Positions 1,190-7,583 of a stretch of 38,666 bases of DNA are shown piece after piece (within the stretch, counting starts at the first letter, position 1; every line of letters starts with the position of its first letter). Source of the DNA: an uncultured Clostridia bacterium (GTDB taxonomy: Bacteria; Bacillota; Clostridia; Oscillospirales; Oscillospiraceae); the NCBI GenBank assembly GCA_937907715.1, contig CALERM010000103.1:1-38666 (forward strand). The letters are read 5' to 3'. The notes under the pieces are model-generated. The model was not told where the DNA came from. It did no database searches and saw only the letters and a program-made list of their open reading frames with translations. The translations under genes and the position numbers were made by a program.

Positions 1190-2212
1190 TCACAGCTCCC
1201 CATACTTTTCCTTATACCGCTTCAGTTCCTCCATCGCCTTGACGAGATATTCTGAAGCGGCCTTCTGGTCTCCCCACAGCTGTTCCGGAATGACTTTCTG
1301 CAATGCCTTTTTGGTCGGCGCTTTGAACACGGTCTTTGGCTTCGTATCTGCAAACAGAAACGCGACGTCCTCTCGCGTCAAAACGTTGCTCTCCGGATCT
1401 TCCGCCGCCGCGACGCGCGTGTCATAGGTCTCTTTGAGGGCGCGCAGGGCGGCCGTGGTCAGCTTTTTCTTGCAATAGCTGGACAGCTCTTCCGGCTCGC
1501 TCGCCTGTCGGAGCAGTTCTATCAACCCGCGCTGGGTCGCCTTGTTCATGCGCGTCAGCGTCTGCGATGCCGCGGACACAGGGATACTTCCGCTGTCTGC
1601 CAGCGCGATAATTTCAGGAATGGCAATCGCCGGGATAAACTGTCGGGCACACTTGATAAAGGACGGCGAGGTCTGGTTCTGTTCTGCCAGCTGTGTGAGT
1701 GTGTCCTTTCCTTCCTTTGCCGTCTTTCCCTGATGCTTCTCCGCTTGGAACTGCATCTCAAACGCCATGCCCAATTCCGAGATCAATAATTGGTCTCTGC
1801 GGTGTACATTGGTCAAAACATAGGTCAAATCGCCCAGTGCAAAGGTGTTGGCCTTTACAGCCTGTAAATCCAAAATTGTGGCATTTAACGTGCTGCGCTC
1901 GGGATGTTTTTGCTGTACCAACCGTGCTGCGCGCGTGCGCTGCTTGCCGGACAACACCTCATACATGCCCGGCTGCTGTTCGGACGGGAACACAATGATG
2001 TTCTCTACCTGTCCGTCCCGCTCCAGGCTGTTCGCCAGCTGCTCCAGCTTGTCCTGCGAGTAATCACGGAAAATCGGATTGCCGTTCACATTCTCTCGAT
2101 GATACGGAATCAGCTTGTCCAGCGGAATCGAGTGGGTCGAACGGTTGCGCTGATCCTGAATGCGCTGGGCTGTGCCGCCTGTCGGAATAATCGGTTTGCC
2201 GCCTCGTGCCAT
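1190..2212 (-). CDS. parB: ParB/RepB/Spo0J family partition protein
   Basis: IPLDKL, LEQLANSLERDGQVENIIV, YEVLSGKQRTRAA (GxxRxxA CTP-binding patch), TNVHRRD; directly downstream of parA. Confidence 0.85.
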   Translation of the reverse strand: MARGGKPIIPTGGTAQRIQDQRNRSTHSIPLDKLIPYHRENVNGNPIFRDYSQDKLEQLANSLERDGQVENIIVFPSEQQPGMYEVLSGKQRTRAARLVQQKHPERSTLNATILDLQAVKANTFALGDLTYVLTNVHRRDQLLISELGMAFEMQFQAEKHQGKTAKEGKDTLTQLAEQNQTSPSFIKCARQFIPAIAIPEIIALADSGSIPVSAASQTLTRMNKATQRGLIELLRQASEPEELSSYCKKKLTTAALRALKETYDTRVAAAEDPESNVLTREDVAFLFADTKPKTVFKAPTKKALQKVIPEQLWGDQKAASEYLVKAMEELKRYKEKYGEL

Positions 2213-2213
2213 G

Positions 2214-2987
2214 TCACTTCACCGCCTTTACAAGCGCATCGACAAAGGCCTCATAATCCTTGAGCGCATTGTTCTTGCGATGCATCTGGAATACATTGGT
2301 GTGCATGGCTTCCGATTCACCAAACAATCCTTCTGCCAAGCGAATCCATTCCGGGAACACCTGACAGCCCATCTGCTGGGCGATGGTCTCCAATTCTCCG
2401 GCAATCGCCTTGCAGGCGCGCACGCGCTTGCTGGACATGGTAATCAAGAAGCCCAAGATGCGCAGATCCGGATTGGTGTTCTGCACATAGTACACCGTGT
2501 CAAAAAACGTCGGGATGCCGCGGATGCTCTGCGCGGTCGCCTTGGTCGGAATGACGATATAATCCGTCGCTTCCAAAGCTGCCGTTTGCAGCCAGCCGAG
2601 ATTTGGCGGCGTGTCAATCAAAATAAAGTCGTACTGTGCGCGCACCTCATCCACAATCTCCTTGATGGCAGACGTGCCGACGCCCAGCCGATCCATATCA
2701 TAGAGCAAAAAGGAAGCGGTAATCAAATCGCCGGACGTGGTATGTACGATGCTGTCCGGCACACTGAGATTCTCATCCATGATGAGATGATACAGCGAAG
2801 CCTCTCTTCCCTCTTCCTGCTGTTCAAAGTCAGGAACCATATACGAAGACGCAGTGGCCTGCGGGTCGGTATCAATCACCAGCACCGAATAGCCGCGGCT
2901 CAGCAGGCATCCGGCCGTTGCGACAACCGACGTCGATTTGCCCACGCCGCCCTTCTGATTGGAAAACGCAATGACAGAACAGCTCAT
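2214..2987 (-). CDS. parA: ParA family partition ATPase
   Basis: Deviant Walker A NQKGGVGKST, VIDTDPQ, FILIDTPP; 257 aa with no N-terminal HTH. Confidence 0.93.
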   Translation of the reverse strand: MSCSVIAFSNQKGGVGKSTSVVATAGCLLSRGYSVLVIDTDPQATASSYMVPDFEQQEEGREASLYHLIMDENLSVPDSIVHTTSGDLITASFLLYDMDRLGVGTSAIKEIVDEVRAQYDFILIDTPPNLGWLQTAALEATDYIVIPTKATAQSIRGIPTFFDTVYYVQNTNPDLRILGFLITMSSKRVRACKAIAGELETIAQQMGCQVFPEWIRLAEGLFGESEAMHTNVFQMHRKNNALKDYEAFVDALVKAVK

Positions 2988-3145
2988 CTTCCCACTTCCT
3001 TTTCTTCTATCGCGTCCATGCGCTCTTTCACGATCATACGAATGTAGCTCGCAACAGGTAAGCCCTTTTTCTCGGCTTCCCGTTCGATTTTGCTATATAA
3101 TTCAACCGGCCAGCGGACGGTCGTCAGCTTTGTATTGCCTGCCAT
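2984..3145 (-). CDS. small ribbon-helix-helix (CopG/Arc-like) DNA-binding protein, 53 aa
   Basis: MAGNTKLTTVRWPVELYSKIEREAEKKGLPVASYIRMIVKE has the RHH pattern. AGAGGTGA RBS before ATG 3145; stop overlaps the parA start. Confidence 0.8.
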   Translation of the reverse strand: MAGNTKLTTVRWPVELYSKIEREAEKKGLPVASYIRMIVKERMDAIEEKEVGR

Positions 3146-3168
3146 AAAAATCACCTCTTTATGCATCT

Positions 3169-3198: not shown

Positions 3199-3265
3199 GC
3201 AATACATGCAAAAAGATTTCAATGAAATTCAAAAGCATTCGTCACAGGGTGACATTCGTCGTGTC

Positions 3266-3400
3266 TATTTCCGTAATTTCGAAAATGGATATTACGGAAA
3301 TCGAAATTACGAAACCAGATACATATATAATATGATTTAGATATAAGACTCAGAGATATAATATTATTACTTACAAGAGATAGAGCATAGCTAGCTAAAA
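3266..3400. other. candidate replication origin (15-bp periodic iteron-like repeats plus AT-rich tract)
   Basis: TATTTCCGTAATTTC / GAAAATGGATATTAC / GGAAATCGAAATTAC / GAAACCAGATACATA in 15-bp register, IR ATTTCCGTAAT...ATTACGGAAAT, then an AT-rich run; lies between par and rep. Confidence 0.5.
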
Positions 3401-3405
3401 AAATC

Positions 3406-3434
3406 TTGACAAGTTATCAGACATCCGCTATAAT
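3406..3434 (+). promoter_or_regulatory. consensus sigma-A promoter for rep
   Basis: TTGACA-17 bp-TATAAT, perfect consensus. Confidence 0.85.
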
Positions 3435-3667
3435 GACAATACATAGTTATATTTGAATATTCTTTTTTTTCTTTTCTTGTTTTCTTATTTTCTTATTTTT
3501 TATCTTCTGCGCAATCAGTGCGTCTGCAAAAGCATACAGGACATATCGTATACATCATGTCCCCCTGATAGAAATGTATCCTTTTTGTATTGTAAGATTG
3601 TATGGAAGTGTTGTTGAAGAGTAACAGCACTTTTTTTGTGCAGAGATTACGATACGGAGGTGCCATC

Positions 3668-4642
3668 ATGGGTGTAGCAGTCAATTTAACTATCAATCGA
3701 ACAGAATATCAAACCGGTTTTACCAAGGTTCCGAACAGCCTGATTCATTCGCAAAAGATTTCTATGAAGGCGAAAATGCTGATGACCTACTTGATTGGTC
3801 AGCGCGACAGCTCGTTTACGCCTGTTTCGGAAAATGACCGGTGGACGATGACATTAAAAGGCCTGTCTCATGTGTTCAAAGAATCTATCGGCTGCATCAA
3901 GCGCTGCATGGATGAGCTCATGCGAGAGGGCTTTGTTGTACGTGTAGACGTGTTAAGCAAGCGAAATTTGCGCATTCGCAGCGAATATGTGGTCTTTGAG
4001 GAGCCAATTGCGAATACTGACGGCAAACCGCGCCGCATTCGGGAAGAAGAATTAAATAAGGGCGTAACCCTGCTGTCTGTCGCCAATCCGAACGGCGAGT
4101 TGTCTGCTGCACAGAGCAAAGAGCTGGAAAAAGACGCTTGCAGAGAAGTTGTCAAGGATATGATTGAAGAGGATACACTCAGTGAAGATTTCTCTCCGGA
4201 AGAGGCAGAAGAAGTGACAGATGCCATCTGTGATGCGATCTGCGACGACAAGACGATTTATATTGACGGAGCTTCCGTCACGCCGGAAGCGTGCAAGGAA
4301 GCCCTGTTTAGGCTGTCCCGTTGGGATGTCGAAAAGATTTTGGATACGGTACGACTGCGAAAAGACATCCGAAATCGCAAGCATTATGTTCTCGCCATGC
4401 TGTATCGAGCTGGCGTACATAAAAATTTCCCGACCGGAGAACGGTATACAGCCATGGATGAGATGCAGCTGCTGCTCGCTGCCGTGCGCCGTGGAGAACT
4501 GATAGACTGGTGGAACGATACCTTTGAACAACTGACGTCGCTGACCAAGTATTTGGCGCAGGCGTATATTTATCATGCGTATATGCATGACGAAACGTTG
4601 CTGCGCAGCATAGGACAACAGCTGAAAGGATTCGATTTCTGA
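3668..4642 (+). CDS. putative replication initiator (N-terminal HTH of phage/ICE replisome-organizer type + DUF6017-like C-terminal domain)
   Basis: FTKVPNSLIHSQKISMKAKMLMTYL...TLKGLSHVFKESIGCIKRCMDELMREGFV...EYVVFEEP; C-terminal VVKDMIEEDTL...KTIYIDG...DIRNRKHYVLAMLY. GGAGG RBS at 3656-3660 favours ATG 3668. Divergent from parAB. Confidence 0.75.
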   Translation: MGVAVNLTINRTEYQTGFTKVPNSLIHSQKISMKAKMLMTYLIGQRDSSFTPVSENDRWTMTLKGLSHVFKESIGCIKRCMDELMREGFVVRVDVLSKRNLRIRSEYVVFEEPIANTDGKPRRIREEELNKGVTLLSVANPNGELSAAQSKELEKDACREVVKDMIEEDTLSEDFSPEEAEEVTDAICDAICDDKTIYIDGASVTPEACKEALFRLSRWDVEKILDTVRLRKDIRNRKHYVLAMLYRAGVHKNFPTGERYTAMDEMQLLLAAVRRGELIDWWNDTFEQLTSLTKYLAQAYIYHAYMHDETLLRSIGQQLKGFDF

Positions 4643-4697
4643 GGGGGATACTATACCCATTTGGCTGTGTAACATAAAATGATTTTGCTGAATATAA

Positions 4698-4746
4698 CAA
4701 GAACCCACACGAGGTATACTAGGTATACTTCTCGTGTGGGTTCTTG
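4698..4746. terminator. long hairpin, probable bidirectional terminator after rep
   Basis: CAAGAACCCACACGAG / CTCGTGTGGGTTCTTG 16-bp perfect stem. Confidence 0.75.
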
Positions 4747-4753
4747 CGCTTTT

Positions 4754-4778
4754 ACTTCCGTTAATCATTAACGGAAGT
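4754..4778. repeat. solo copy of 25-bp palindrome (parS/iteron-like)
   Basis: ACTTCCGTTAA-TCA-TTAACGGAAGT perfect 11-3-11 IR. Confidence 0.9.
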
Positions 4779-4886
4779 GTATCGACAAGTTTCGAGACAA
4801 AGCAAAACACGCTATACAAGACACAATCGTCAAAAGTCTTGCACAGCGTGTTCCGCGTTTCTTATTTCTTTTTATCTTCTTCGAGT

Positions 4887-4915
4887 ATTATACAATGGAT
4901 TTCTGAAAAAAGCAA
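4887..4915 (-). promoter_or_regulatory. sigma-A promoter pointing left toward the rep 3' end
   Basis: TTGCTT-17 bp-TATAAT on - strand with AT-rich UP-like tract at ~4919-4945. Confidence 0.7.
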
Positions 4916-4990
4916 GCATTTTTTTTAATTAAATAAAAAAAATTTTCGACAGCACGCGACACAATAAAAGGCTGCTGTTTTTTCTGCCCT

Positions 4991-5522
4991 GCTTTCGTTA
5001 ATCGTTAACGGAAGTGAGAGTTCGCGCGTCTGCCCTGCCGGTACGGACTTTCGTTAATTGTTAACGGAAGTGAGGGTTCGCGTGTCTGCCCTACCGGTGC
5101 GGACTTTCGTTAATTGTTAACGGAAGTGGAAGTTCCCGCGTCTTCCCTTTCGGTGCGGACTTTCGTTAATTGTTAACGGAAGTGGAAGTTCCCGCGTCTT
5201 CCCTTTCGGTACGGACTTTCGTTAATTGTTAACGGAAGTGGAGAGTTAACGCGTCTGCCCTACCGGTGCGGACTTTCGTTAATTGTTAACGGAAGTGGAG
5301 AGTTCGCGCGTCTTCACTACCGGCACGGACTTTCGTTAATTGTTAACGGAAGTGGAGATTCGCGCTTCTGCCCTACCGGTGCGGACTTTCGTTAATTGTT
5401 AACGGAAGTGGAAGTTTCCGCATTTGCCCTACCGGTACGGACTTTCGTTAATTGTTAACGGAAGTGGAGAGTTAACGCGTCTGCCCTACCAGTGCGGACT
5501 TTCGTTAATCGTTAACGGAAGT
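4991..5522. repeat. tandem array of 10 palindromic cores, 56-57 bp period (candidate parS centromere or iteron array)
   Basis: Core ACTTTCGTTAAT(T/C)GTTAACGGAAGT starts at 4991, 5047, 5103, 5159, 5215, 5272, 5329, 5385, 5441, 5498; the 31-32 bp linkers are homologous but diverged. Confidence 0.95.
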
Positions 5523-5639
5523 TAGGCATTGCCGAAATCGCCGCTGCATTGGAACGGGGAGAGGTGGCAGAGCCGCATGAGGACGACGTGTCCGCGATTC
5601 ACATGGCGAGAAAAAATTTCACTGATTTATCAGATATGA

Positions 5640-6011
5640 TATAATCAAAGCAAGAAGAAGCTGTGCATTCATGAGCAGGATGAAGCGCATTATTTTTCCG
5701 CCGAGCTGTGGGGGACACTAGAGCGCACGCCGAAGGACAGCATCATTGTATTTTATTCCACCGAATATGATGAACACAGCGAGATCACCGATGTCGATTT
5801 CAATTTTGTCGCGCGGGGCGAGTTTGAGAAAACCTATGATGTAGTGGAAAGATCATCAGAGGAATCCCTTACAGTCAAAAAACTCCAGCCGTTCACACGC
5901 AGGAACCGCTGGAGTTTTCCGTTTCGCAAGTTTAGGAGGAAAATGGTATGTATGACGTTCATACAGATGCAAAAGTATTGTGGGAGTATCATCATCTCCA
6001 TCAGCCCTTGA
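5640..6011 (+). pseudogene. start-less gene fragment
   Basis: Open frame ...HEQDEAHYFSAELWGTLERTPKDSIIVFYSTEYDEHSEITDVDFNFVARGEFEKTYDVV... reads like protein but has no usable start codon or RBS (in-frame TGA at 5637). Confidence 0.4.
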
Positions 6012-6607
6012 AAAAGGCAGATGCTATTCTTGGTTTTGGCAGTCATGATCTGCATGTTGCCGAACGAGCAGCCGAGTTATATCTTGCCGGATATGGGAAA
6101 TACATTATTTTTACTGGTGGCTTAGGGCGTATTACAAAAAATATTTGGAGGAAGCCAGAAGCGATGGAATTTGCTGAAGTGGCAGTAAAAAGAGGCGTTC
6201 CTCGGGAGAAAATCTTTACCGAATCGGCATCGACAAATACCGGAGAAAATATCCGCCATACGAAGCTTTTGCTAAAGCAAAAACAGCTGTCGTTTTCCGA
6301 CTATCTGGTTGTAGATAAGCCGTTTAAGGAACGGAGAATCTATGCAACGCTCAAGAAACAATGGAGCGACTTGGATTTTCGCGTAACCTCTCCACAGAAT
6401 ACCTATGAGGAATATTACCGGTATTATCAGCAATCGGAGCAACTGCATGTCGAGGATTTTCTCAATATTCTGGTCGGTGATTTGCAGCGTATTAACCTTT
6501 ATGGGCGGAATGGATTTCAGATTCCGCAGGAGATTCCATCTGATGTATGGGCAGCATATCGGAGACTGGTAGACGCTGGATTTGACAAGCAGCTCATACC
6601 GGAGTGA
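5948..6607 (+). CDS. YdcF/DUF218 (SanA/ElyC-like) family protein
   Basis: ADAILGFGS, IIFTGGLG, ESASTNTGENI motifs; AGGAGG RBS. Confidence 0.88.
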   Translation: MYDVHTDAKVLWEYHHLHQPLKKADAILGFGSHDLHVAERAAELYLAGYGKYIIFTGGLGRITKNIWRKPEAMEFAEVAVKRGVPREKIFTESASTNTGENIRHTKLLLKQKQLSFSDYLVVDKPFKERRIYATLKKQWSDLDFRVTSPQNTYEEYYRYYQQSEQLHVEDFLNILVGDLQRINLYGRNGFQIPQEIPSDVWAAYRRLVDAGFDKQLIPE

Positions 6608-6629: not shown

Positions 6630-6656
6630 AACTTCCGTTAATCGTTAACGGAAGTT
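6630..6656. repeat. solo copy of the array palindrome, followed by a T-tract (may double as terminator)
   Basis: AACTTCCGTTAA-TCG-TTAACGGAAGTT then TTGTTTTTTT. Confidence 0.9.
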
Positions 6657-6728: not shown

Positions 6729-7583
6729 GTGATGATGCGGCTATTGACAGAGCAGCAGCTAAAAGCATTTGAAAAAAGCCTTGTTCTAGAGGAGAAGAGC
6801 AAGGCGACGATAGAAAAATATATGCGCGATGTCCGCGCGTTTTATGCGTTTGTGTCCGGTCAAGAGGTGGAGAAACGGCAAATACTTGCATACAAACAGC
6901 ATATACTCGCGCAACAATACGCGGCGAGAACTGTGAACTCTATGCTGTGCAGTGTGAATCGGCTGCTGCGCTTTTTGGGGTGGAATGATTGTGTGGTGAA
7001 GGGCTTGCGGATCCAGCGGCAAGTCTATCAATCGGAACAAAAGGAGCTGACCAAAACCGAGTTTCAGAGATTATTACAGGCGGCAGCGCGCAAGCCACGG
7101 CTGCAAATGCTGTTGAAAACGATGGGATGGACAGGCATTCGTGTTTCAGAACTACAGTATTTTACGGTAGAGCGTGTAAGGACGGGAAGGATTTCCATTT
7201 CCTGCAAAGGAAAAATTCGGACAATTTTGCTTCCAAAGGTGTTGCGGAGAAACCTATTAAAGTATTGCGAGAAACGCAACATTGATACAGGGATTATTTT
7301 CCGCACGCGCAGCGGAAAGCCACTGGATCGGAGCAACATTTGGGCAGCGATGAAAAAATTATGTGCGGCGGCGAACGTGTCGAAAGAAAAAGTGTTTCCG
7401 CACAATATAAGAAAATTATTTGCCAGAACATTTTATTTTATGGCGAAGGATATTGCGCGTCTAGCTGACATATTGGGACATAATAGCATCGAAACAACAC
7501 GAATTTATATCATGACGACAGAAAAAGAAAATCAAAAGTTTTTAGACGAGATGGATCGCCTGCTTTTTCCATCGGGCGGATAG
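6729..7583 (+). CDS. tyrosine-type site-specific recombinase (Xer/integrase family)
   Basis: TGIRVSEL (R), CKGK (K), FPHNIRKLFA (HxxR), LGH, TTRIY (Y); N-terminal SAM-like domain. Confidence 0.95.
   Translation: MMMRLLTEQQLKAFEKSLVLEEKSKATIEKYMRDVRAFYAFVSGQEVEKRQILAYKQHILAQQYAARTVNSMLCSVNRLLRFLGWNDCVVKGLRIQRQVYQSEQKELTKTEFQRLLQAAARKPRLQMLLKTMGWTGIRVSELQYFTVERVRTGRISISCKGKIRTILLPKVLRRNLLKYCEKRNIDTGIIFRTRSGKPLDRSNIWAAMKKLCAAANVSKEKVFPHNIRKLFARTFYFMAKDIARLADILGHNSIETTRIYIMTTEKENQKFLDEMDRLLFPSGG

Follow-up and report, generated by a model that had tools for sequence, protein, structure and literature searches.

The present analysis concerns a locus of an uncultured Clostridia bacterium (Bacillota; Oscillospirales; Oscillospiraceae), carried on contig CALERM010000103.1 of assembly GCA_937907715.1, the whole stretch of 38,666 nucleotides being called the window here. 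At this locus a rep-like gene with a long leader (3441-3667) is followed, beyond its 3' end, by a region that a preliminary description had taken for an unannotated structured small RNA read leftward. The name "rep" and the role of initiator are deduced from the context of the gene. Judged from the sequence and its relatives, the region is a real, conserved and strand-specific structured element with a specific predicted target, namely the rep leader. The comparison set consists of the window and four loci fetched through the Rep protein from genome contigs, L001 to L004, with Rep identities to the window of 99%, 97%, 97% and 75% respectively. All comparative statements refer to these five sequences; more distant Rep relatives are known here as proteins only. 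The features of the rep gene and of the small-RNA gene are as follows.

3406-3434, plus strand: rep promoter TTGACA-17-TATAAT, 12 of 12 in the consensus promoter scan, kept in all five sequences
3480-3508, plus strand: target module a, a U-rich tract at leader nt 40-68, complementary to the 5' tail of the small RNA
3509-3516, plus strand: target module b, leader nt 69-76, GCGCAAUC, complementary to the loop of stem 1 and directly abutting module a
3580-3660, plus strand: long leader helix of the consensus fold, with 3580-3595 paired to 3647-3660, in which the rep Shine-Dalgarno sequence (GGAGG at 3656-3660) is hidden
3604-3637, plus strand: terminator-like hairpin with a run of seven U, about 30 nt before the rep start codon, -12.5 to -13.3 kcal/mol
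3668-4642, plus strand: rep-like gene, 324 amino acids, whose only Pfam family is DUF6017
4690-4880, minus strand: predicted small RNA of about 190 nt, which would start 7 nt past the -10 hexamer and end after the terminator hairpin
4698-4746, unstranded: 16-bp hairpin with a 17-nt loop, arms 4698-4713 and 4731-4746, 100% complementary
4754-4778, unstranded: perfect palindrome, hairpin 2 of the small RNA
4802-4856, minus strand: stem-loop 1, a 21-bp stem with four G-U pairs (arms 4802-4822 and 4836-4856) and a 13-nt loop (4823-4835)
4857-4880, minus strand: purine-rich single-stranded 5' tail, RNA nt 1-24, unpaired in the centroid fold, the proposed seed
4858-4960, unstranded: AT-rich stretch with a GC content of 0.24, the most AT-rich 100 bp, which holds the small-RNA promoter and is kept in L004
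4887-4892, minus strand: -10 hexamer TATAAT (reverse complement of 4887-4892), identical in all five sequences
4910-4915, minus strand: -35-like hexamer TTGCTT (reverse complement of 4910-4915), matching TTGACA at 3 of 6 positions, with an A/T run upstream

The two promoters are convergent, with the rep coding region lying between the rep leader and the small-RNA gene. The leftward promoter TTGCTT-17-TATAAT with its upstream A/T run, as first described, is present, and both hexamers and their spacing are kept in the four related loci: the spacer has 17 nt in all five sequences, and the -35 hexamer reads TTGCTT in four of them and TTGCGT in L004. Between the window and L004, counted by hand on the alignment, 11 of 12 hexamer positions are identical, compared with 12 of 17 in the spacer. 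From this promoter the small RNA would be transcribed leftward out of the AT-rich stretch, convergent with rep, and would end at a terminator hairpin common to both. The region had been said to hold no open reading frame (ORF), which is not the case, as a minus-strand ORF of 255 amino acids (TTG at 4819, antisense through rep) and a plus-strand ORF of 64 amino acids (4734-4928) overlap it. A small-protein reading was tried and rejected: neither ORF is conserved in frame or length in L004, where indels break the frames. The Rfam search that the preliminary description had called for gives no match at the gathering score with Rfam 15 over the whole window. With permissive filters on 4400-5700 there are 13 matches, all with E >= 1 and with 13-22 bits against gathering scores of 50-211, which are eukaryotic microRNA and small nucleolar RNA models, and VrrA on the wrong strand. 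The small RNA matches no family in this search.

On the whole, the region is strongly structured. The minus strand of 4680-4885 folds at -87.3 kcal/mol, compared with -42.8 +/- 3.7 kcal/mol for shuffled sequences (z = -12.1; none of 200 shuffles as good), and the plus strand of the same region at -73.6 kcal/mol (z = -7.9). Three hairpins are alike in the folds of all five sequences. Among them, stem 1 pairs at 21 of 21 positions on the minus strand with four G-U pairs, just as had been reported, and forms an uninterrupted 21-bp helix in every one of the five sequences, each in its own fold. Between the window and L004, ten pairs are the same, five carry one-sided changes that still leave a standard or G-U pair, five carry two-sided changes and none is broken; L001 contributes one further two-sided change. 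With the helix placed on the MAFFT register, 96.2% of cells pair, a share that drops to 29-60% when the partner is slid; three pairs are changed on both sides, and the covariation score is reached by 17 of 500 shuffles; this plain register puts the apical stem-1 pairs of L004 one column off. Conservation or covariation of the stem in homologous loci had been set beforehand as a check, and both were found, all five loci keeping the 21-bp stem with compensatory changes. With a covariance model of the tail and stem 1, scores of 63-107 bits are reached by the five cognate sites alone and no second copy turns up, the other 13 matches (at most 35 bits) being reverse strands, neighbouring hairpins and weak generic hairpins.

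Nine positions of stem 1 have a G-U pair in at least one sequence, and each of them is an A-C mismatch on the plus strand; therefore the stem-1 helix is selected on the minus strand. This extends to all five sequences the argument for selection on RNA structure that had been made from the window. The same asymmetry, with G-T tolerated and A-C not, fits folded single-stranded DNA too. Stem-loop 1 could in that case be a strand-specific signal in single-stranded DNA, a primosome assembly site or single-strand initiation site for lagging-strand priming once the AT-rich region opens. Such sites occur near theta-plasmid origins, and stem 1 adjoins the likely unwinding region. We regard this reading as very unlikely, as it leaves unexplained the conserved promoter spacing, the U-rich terminator tail and the co-varying complementarity to the leader described below. 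Moreover, DUF6017 is the sole Pfam match of the Rep, which by Pfam does not belong to the rolling-circle (HUH) type, so a single-strand origin of the rolling-circle kind is not expected.

The 16-bp hairpin noted earlier at the end of the small RNA is likewise present. It shows two compensatory pairs relative to L004 and has U-rich tails on both strands, and we propose it as a bidirectional terminator common to the rep mRNA and the small RNA. Its loop, of 17-18 nt (4714-4730 in the window, about 6050-6070 in L001 to L003), holds a small palindrome GTATAC...GTATAC and is reverse-complemented between the window and L001 and L002, which looks like a flip between the inverted-repeat arms; L003 lacks 9 nt of it.

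The specific target is predicted from the 5' tail of the small RNA, whose bases complement those of the U-rich tract in the rep leader, at a distance of about 1.3 kb on the DNA with rep between. Leader nt 40-79, which include this tract, have a mean probability of being unpaired of 0.76. The predicted duplex has -19.9 to -21.9 kcal/mol in the window and -17.6 to -25.5 kcal/mol across all five loci. When the tail is scanned against 5148 sixty-nucleotide segments covering both strands of the whole 38.7-kb window, the best non-self partner is the rep leader (3451-3510, -19.9 kcal/mol), with a runner-up at -12.2 kcal/mol, a mean of -4.1 and a standard deviation of 2.1. The rep leader is also the top non-self target in L001, L003 and L004, and the second in L002 (-14.8 against -15.1 kcal/mol). 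For none of the five tails does a non-cognate leader beat the cognate one, with L001 and L003 tying on each other's. The tail and leader blocks differ between lineages and change together, as listed here.

Window: RNA tail AGAAGAUAAAAAG, leader UUUUUUAUCUUCU
L001 and L003: RNA tail AGAAGAUAAAAAA, leader UUUUUUAUCUUCU
L002: RNA tail AGAGAAUAAA, leader UUUAUUCUCU
L004: RNA tail AGAGAAUAAG, leader CUUAUUCUCU
L001 and L003 only, second paired block: RNA tail AAGACAAGAA, leader UUCUUGUCUU

Besides the tail, the loop of stem 1 matches the leader at module b. This second match has 8 bp with two G-U pairs in the window, 12 bp with three G-U pairs in both L001 and L002, 12 bp with two in L003, and 9 bp with none in L004, where it involves unrelated sequence further downstream (GAUAGAAGC with GCUUCUAUC). 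A double change from U-A to C-G separates L001 from L003. Shuffled sequences are as good in 9, 13, 0 and 7 of 500 cases for L001, L002, L003 and L004 respectively. At the DNA level both matches come from two short direct repeats, with a pair on either side of rep, whose reading directions are opposite. In the leader the tract comes first and the loop-match second, and on the plus strand of the RNA gene the loop comes first and the tract second; with the module order swapped in this way, a single duplicated DNA block is unlikely.

Downstream of its target modules, the rep leader has further structure of its own. The arms of the terminator-like hairpin are invariant in all five sequences, and the promoter and terminator scan did not list it. 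As predicted from sequence and folding, it precedes the rep ribosome-binding site, as in the class of cis-encoded rep countertranscripts. It sits inside the long helix, a conserved element of the 3' half of the leader, and the Shine-Dalgarno sequence has a probability of being unpaired of only 0.03-0.17 in the five leaders. In folds of the nascent chain, 3504-3516 pairs with 3596-3608 in an antiterminator-like manner, with one compensatory change in L004 (found by hand). The energy of this helix is clearly better than that of shuffles in L004, marginally so in the window and not in L001 to L003. In addition, a weak promoter-like site TCAACA-17-TACAAT (9 of 12) lies on the minus strand inside the leader (3617-3589) and could give a cis-antisense RNA; by hand it is found poorly kept in L004, and no terminator is seen downstream of it.

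The order of features 3' of rep is the 16-bp hairpin, the palindrome, the 21-bp stem, the AT-rich stretch, a tandem array, a DUF218 gene, a twelfth palindrome and a gene for an Xer-like recombinase. Those beyond the small-RNA gene are as follows.

4987-5522: tandem array of ten 56/57-bp repeats, each with one near-palindrome
between the end of the array (5522) and the twelfth palindrome (6633): DUF218 gene
6633-6653: twelfth palindrome
6729-7583: Xer-like recombinase gene

The array presumably recalls in its layout the sopC centromere of the F plasmid or iteron titration arrays. Its copy number varies among relatives whose Rep is 97-99% identical (L001, L002 and L003, from about 6320), and L004 (5900-10966) has no tandem array and only one degenerate palindrome, at about 6300-6324. 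With a T run behind it (6630-6656), the twelfth palindrome is rated as a terminator placed after the DUF218 gene; the Xer-like gene begins shortly downstream.

The palindrome within the small RNA had led to the idea that the RNA is a partner of array transcripts, an antitoxin-like role being named beside it. Resemblance to the array units does exist (4756-4776), and the convergent layout, the common terminator and the 5' direct repeats are those of the type I toxin-antitoxin locus par of pAD1 (PMC7472228). The palindrome is not a perfect copy of the array unit, as had been claimed, since the array units differ at one arm base (TTTCG instead of TTCCG) and in the centre. The complementarity to an array transcript is correct as such; it holds for any palindrome and is therefore uninformative. 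In L004 the promoter, stem 1, the terminator and the leader match persist with no array, and the RNA palindrome there has non-pairs (C-A and U-U) at 3 of 11 pairs on the minus strand, so the array-partner idea is unsupported; the array also varies in copy number among near-identical relatives, as said above. As for an antitoxin, no conserved small ORF faces the RNA: those of the window have disappeared or changed frame in L004, and the interval from the rep stop (4642) to the hairpin (4698) is too short for one. The convergent partner transcript is rep itself. We therefore hold a role as array partner or type I antitoxin to be extremely improbable. The palindrome within the small RNA is probably a protein site at the DNA level.

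The AT-rich stretch may be the unwinding region of the origin. Palindromes flank it at similar spacing: 4754-4778 and 4991-5015 in the window, 237 bp from centre to centre, and about 6074-6094 and 6300-6324 in L004, 228 bp apart. Such spacing hints at an origin core that would enclose the small-RNA promoter. One may then ask if the transcript serves the origin, through opening or as a primer, rather than rep control, with the leader match being secondary. The position of the promoter inside the most AT-rich 100 bp and between two palindromes speaks for it, and so does the fact that the whole AT-rich block, not the hexamers alone, is kept in L004. However, the transcript heads away from the array and stops at a strong hairpin after 190 nt, and an elaborate conserved fold with a target-matched 5' tail would be unnecessary for transcriptional activation; we consider such an origin transcript quite unlikely.

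Several points weigh against rep control by a pairing RNA. The -35 hexamer is weak, and because it fits the consensus at only 3 of 6 positions the small-RNA promoter is missing from the list of the promoter scan; the start and the end of the RNA are placed by consensus motifs. Among the five sequences the only deep divergence is that of L004 from the others, which are shallow variants, so that the covariation counts are small and not independent. Shuffled tails equal the leader duplex in 18 (window), 1 (L001), 49 (L002), 1 (L003) and 4 (L004) of 500 cases, the window and L002 being marginal because both partners are of low complexity. The loop module is weaker evidence than the tail module: its match is not significant in the window, where 151 of 500 shuffles are as good, and the rep leader is the top-ranked partner of the loop segment in no locus. 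As for the leader, the antiterminator pairing is equalled by shuffles in 25 (window), 109 (L001), 69 (L002), 113 (L003) and 4 (L004) of 300 cases. Masking the RNA target leaves the predicted accessibility of the Shine-Dalgarno sequence unchanged, and no structural switch is seen in the leader. Finally, the real strand pair is better than its mirror image in 9 of 10 comparisons, by a margin of only 0.2-4.1 kcal/mol, and direct DNA repeats bound by one protein could likewise evolve in concert.

The last two points lead to the explanation that the elements act as DNA. The repeats flanking rep would then be sites for one protein (Rep, a partition protein or a regulator), the stem and hairpins would be DNA structures associated with the origin, and the promoter-like hexamers would be incidental to AT-rich DNA. 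The tail-leader and loop-leader matches are indeed direct repeats in the DNA, the real and the mirror strand pair differ little in energy, the palindrome inside the RNA behaves as a DNA site, and in the window as in L004 the region lies between two palindromes some 230-240 bp apart around the AT-rich stretch. On the other hand, the complementarity begins at the very position where the transcript is predicted to start and takes up the loop of a hairpin that covariation supports, the two modules stand in swapped order, nine G-U positions are tolerated on one strand only, and the hexamers are better kept than the spacer. In view of these facts we find an explanation by DNA sites alone rather unlikely.

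Overall, it seems fairly probable to us that the region encodes a non-coding RNA, about 190 nt long, which takes part in replication control, being trans-encoded and pairing with the rep leader. Among the roles that had been offered for it, that of a replication or incompatibility RNA is the one that gains support, with a 5' tail complementary to the rep leader and a pairing that co-varies across lineages. The small RNA would bind the rep leader, probably by a first contact of the loop followed by zippering of the tail. Binding would lower the synthesis of Rep and would make the RNA a diffusible determinant of copy number and incompatibility. Since the leader has both a terminator-like hairpin and a helix burying the ribosome-binding site, the outcome might be premature termination, as in pIP501 and pT181, or else cleavage and decay of the duplex, or a translation that is kept shut. 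A more far-reaching form of this proposal would have the RNA born inside the origin. Its promoter would lie in the unwinding stretch, flanked by two palindromic protein sites of which one is itself within the transcribed part; how far the origin is occupied or open would set the RNA output, and the RNA would clamp the rep message at its 5' leader, through the co-evolving repeats, and at its 3' end, through the common terminator hairpin, giving an RNA feedback loop from the state of the origin to initiator synthesis. We offer this only tentatively, as an unlikely case. If true, such an origin-state feedback RNA would put the layout of a type I toxin-antitoxin locus to use in a kind of plasmid copy control that has not been described.

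The maintenance block in the window is plasmid-like, with a leftward partition operon that faces the rep-like gene.

2984-3166, minus strand: RHH protein, a weak CopG-type match below the cutoff
2214-2987, minus strand: ParA ATPase, short
1190-2212, minus strand: protein of 340 amino acids whose sole match is the ParB N-terminal domain, at the cutoff

An RHH protein, a short ParA and a protein with a ParB N-terminal domain form an unusual three-gene combination. At 3260-3320, between the divergent par and rep promoters, TTACGGAAATCGAAATTACGAAA-like motifs recur and show no change among the five loci; the RHH or the ParB-like protein may use them as operator or centromere. The adjoining ParA/ParB partition operon, the size of the window (more than 38 kb) and a Rep with DUF6017 only suggest a theta-type replicon. 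NCBIfam has no family for this Rep, a sequence search of the PDB with the Rep profile gives matches at chance level only (E 0.3-0.8), and no paper on DUF6017 was found in the open-access literature. In the protein database the Rep has 12 relatives, one of them named as from Butyricicoccus. Those known as proteins only have identities of 71-81% or 42-45%, apart from one fragment at 95%. A blastn search of 3400-5600 against plasmid and phage collections gives no match, and a tblastn search of the Rep against plasmids gives 19 records, none of which reaches 60% identity or covers 80% of the query. Two of these plasmid records, L005 and L006, were tried as relatives and rejected, for their DUF6017 gene stands beside PcfB (in L006 also a VirD4-like gene) in the context of a conjugative element without the present layout. 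The contigs with Rep 97-99% identical are binned as Anaerotignum sp., an Eggerthellaceae bacterium and simply "bacterium", and the relative at 75% as Butyricicoccus; the scattered names fit a mobile replicon that is either mis-binned or of broad host range.

That antisense RNAs control plasmid replication is textbook knowledge. In the cases known to us, the control RNA is read from the strand opposite to its target and thus matches it for free. Here rep stands between the RNA gene and its target, 1.3 kb away, and co-evolving short repeats are needed to maintain the match. The CopA/CopT pair of R1 and RNA I/RNA II of ColE1 bind in two steps, a loop contact followed by a single-stranded tail, and the predicted small RNA is similar in having a target-matching loop beside an unpaired target-matching 5' segment. 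They are, however, fully complementary cis-antisense RNAs of Gram-negative plasmids, whereas the loop match here is weak in the window and the kissing only predicted. Antisense action on a target of the same element through short segments outside the overlap is found for the c4 repressor RNA of phages P1 and P7 and for SprA1AS of Staphylococcus aureus. Both are alike in acting through short segments; they differ in biology (phage immunity and a toxin) and in genomic layout.

In replicons of the type of pIP501 (RNAIII), pT181 (RNAI/II) and pAMbeta1, countertranscripts induce a terminator in the rep leader (PMC5703833). The present case is like them in having a small structured plasmid RNA complementary to the rep leader, a terminator-like hairpin before the rep ribosome-binding site, and the expected role of negative copy-number control and incompatibility. 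It differs in that those RNAs come from the opposite strand of the leader and match it perfectly, whereas the RNA here is encoded about 1.3 kb off, beyond the 3' end of rep, and matches through short co-evolving segments (13 and 11 bp in the window); also, an antiterminator overlapped by the target is not convincing here, its energy being clearly better than that of shuffles in L004 alone. In par of pAD1, convergent promoters, a bidirectional terminator in common, two direct repeats giving 5' complementarity and a helix hiding the ribosome-binding site are described (PMC7472228). The likeness, at the level of sequence, extends to the convergent promoters, the common bidirectional terminator, the two repeat modules and the helix hiding the ribosome-binding site in the long RNA. 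Unlike in par, the long RNA here is a 1.3-kb rep message in place of a toxin message of 210 nt, an Fst-like peptide is lacking, the small RNA has about 190 nt against about 65 nt, and the target lies far upstream of the ribosome-binding site and not on it. A small hydrophobic toxin ORF of the par/Fst kind was looked for in the long RNA, which has no conserved small ORF and encodes the 324-amino-acid DUF6017 protein. The best reading is that the function would resemble that of the pIP501 and pT181 countertranscripts, and the layout that of pAD1 par. In open-access full text, searched with few terms so that a precedent may exist, no description of a rep-control RNA encoded beyond the 3' end of rep was found.

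The region is thus best read as antisense-RNA replication control in a new form, with the RNA far from its target. If confirmed, this would be a new layout for copy-number control, and would link the architecture of a par-type toxin-antitoxin locus with the control of replication. It would also provide a compact and tunable replicon part for genetic tools in bacteria that are hard to engineer, and would define the incompatibility determinant for an uncharacterised family of DUF6017-Rep replicons of gut Clostridia.

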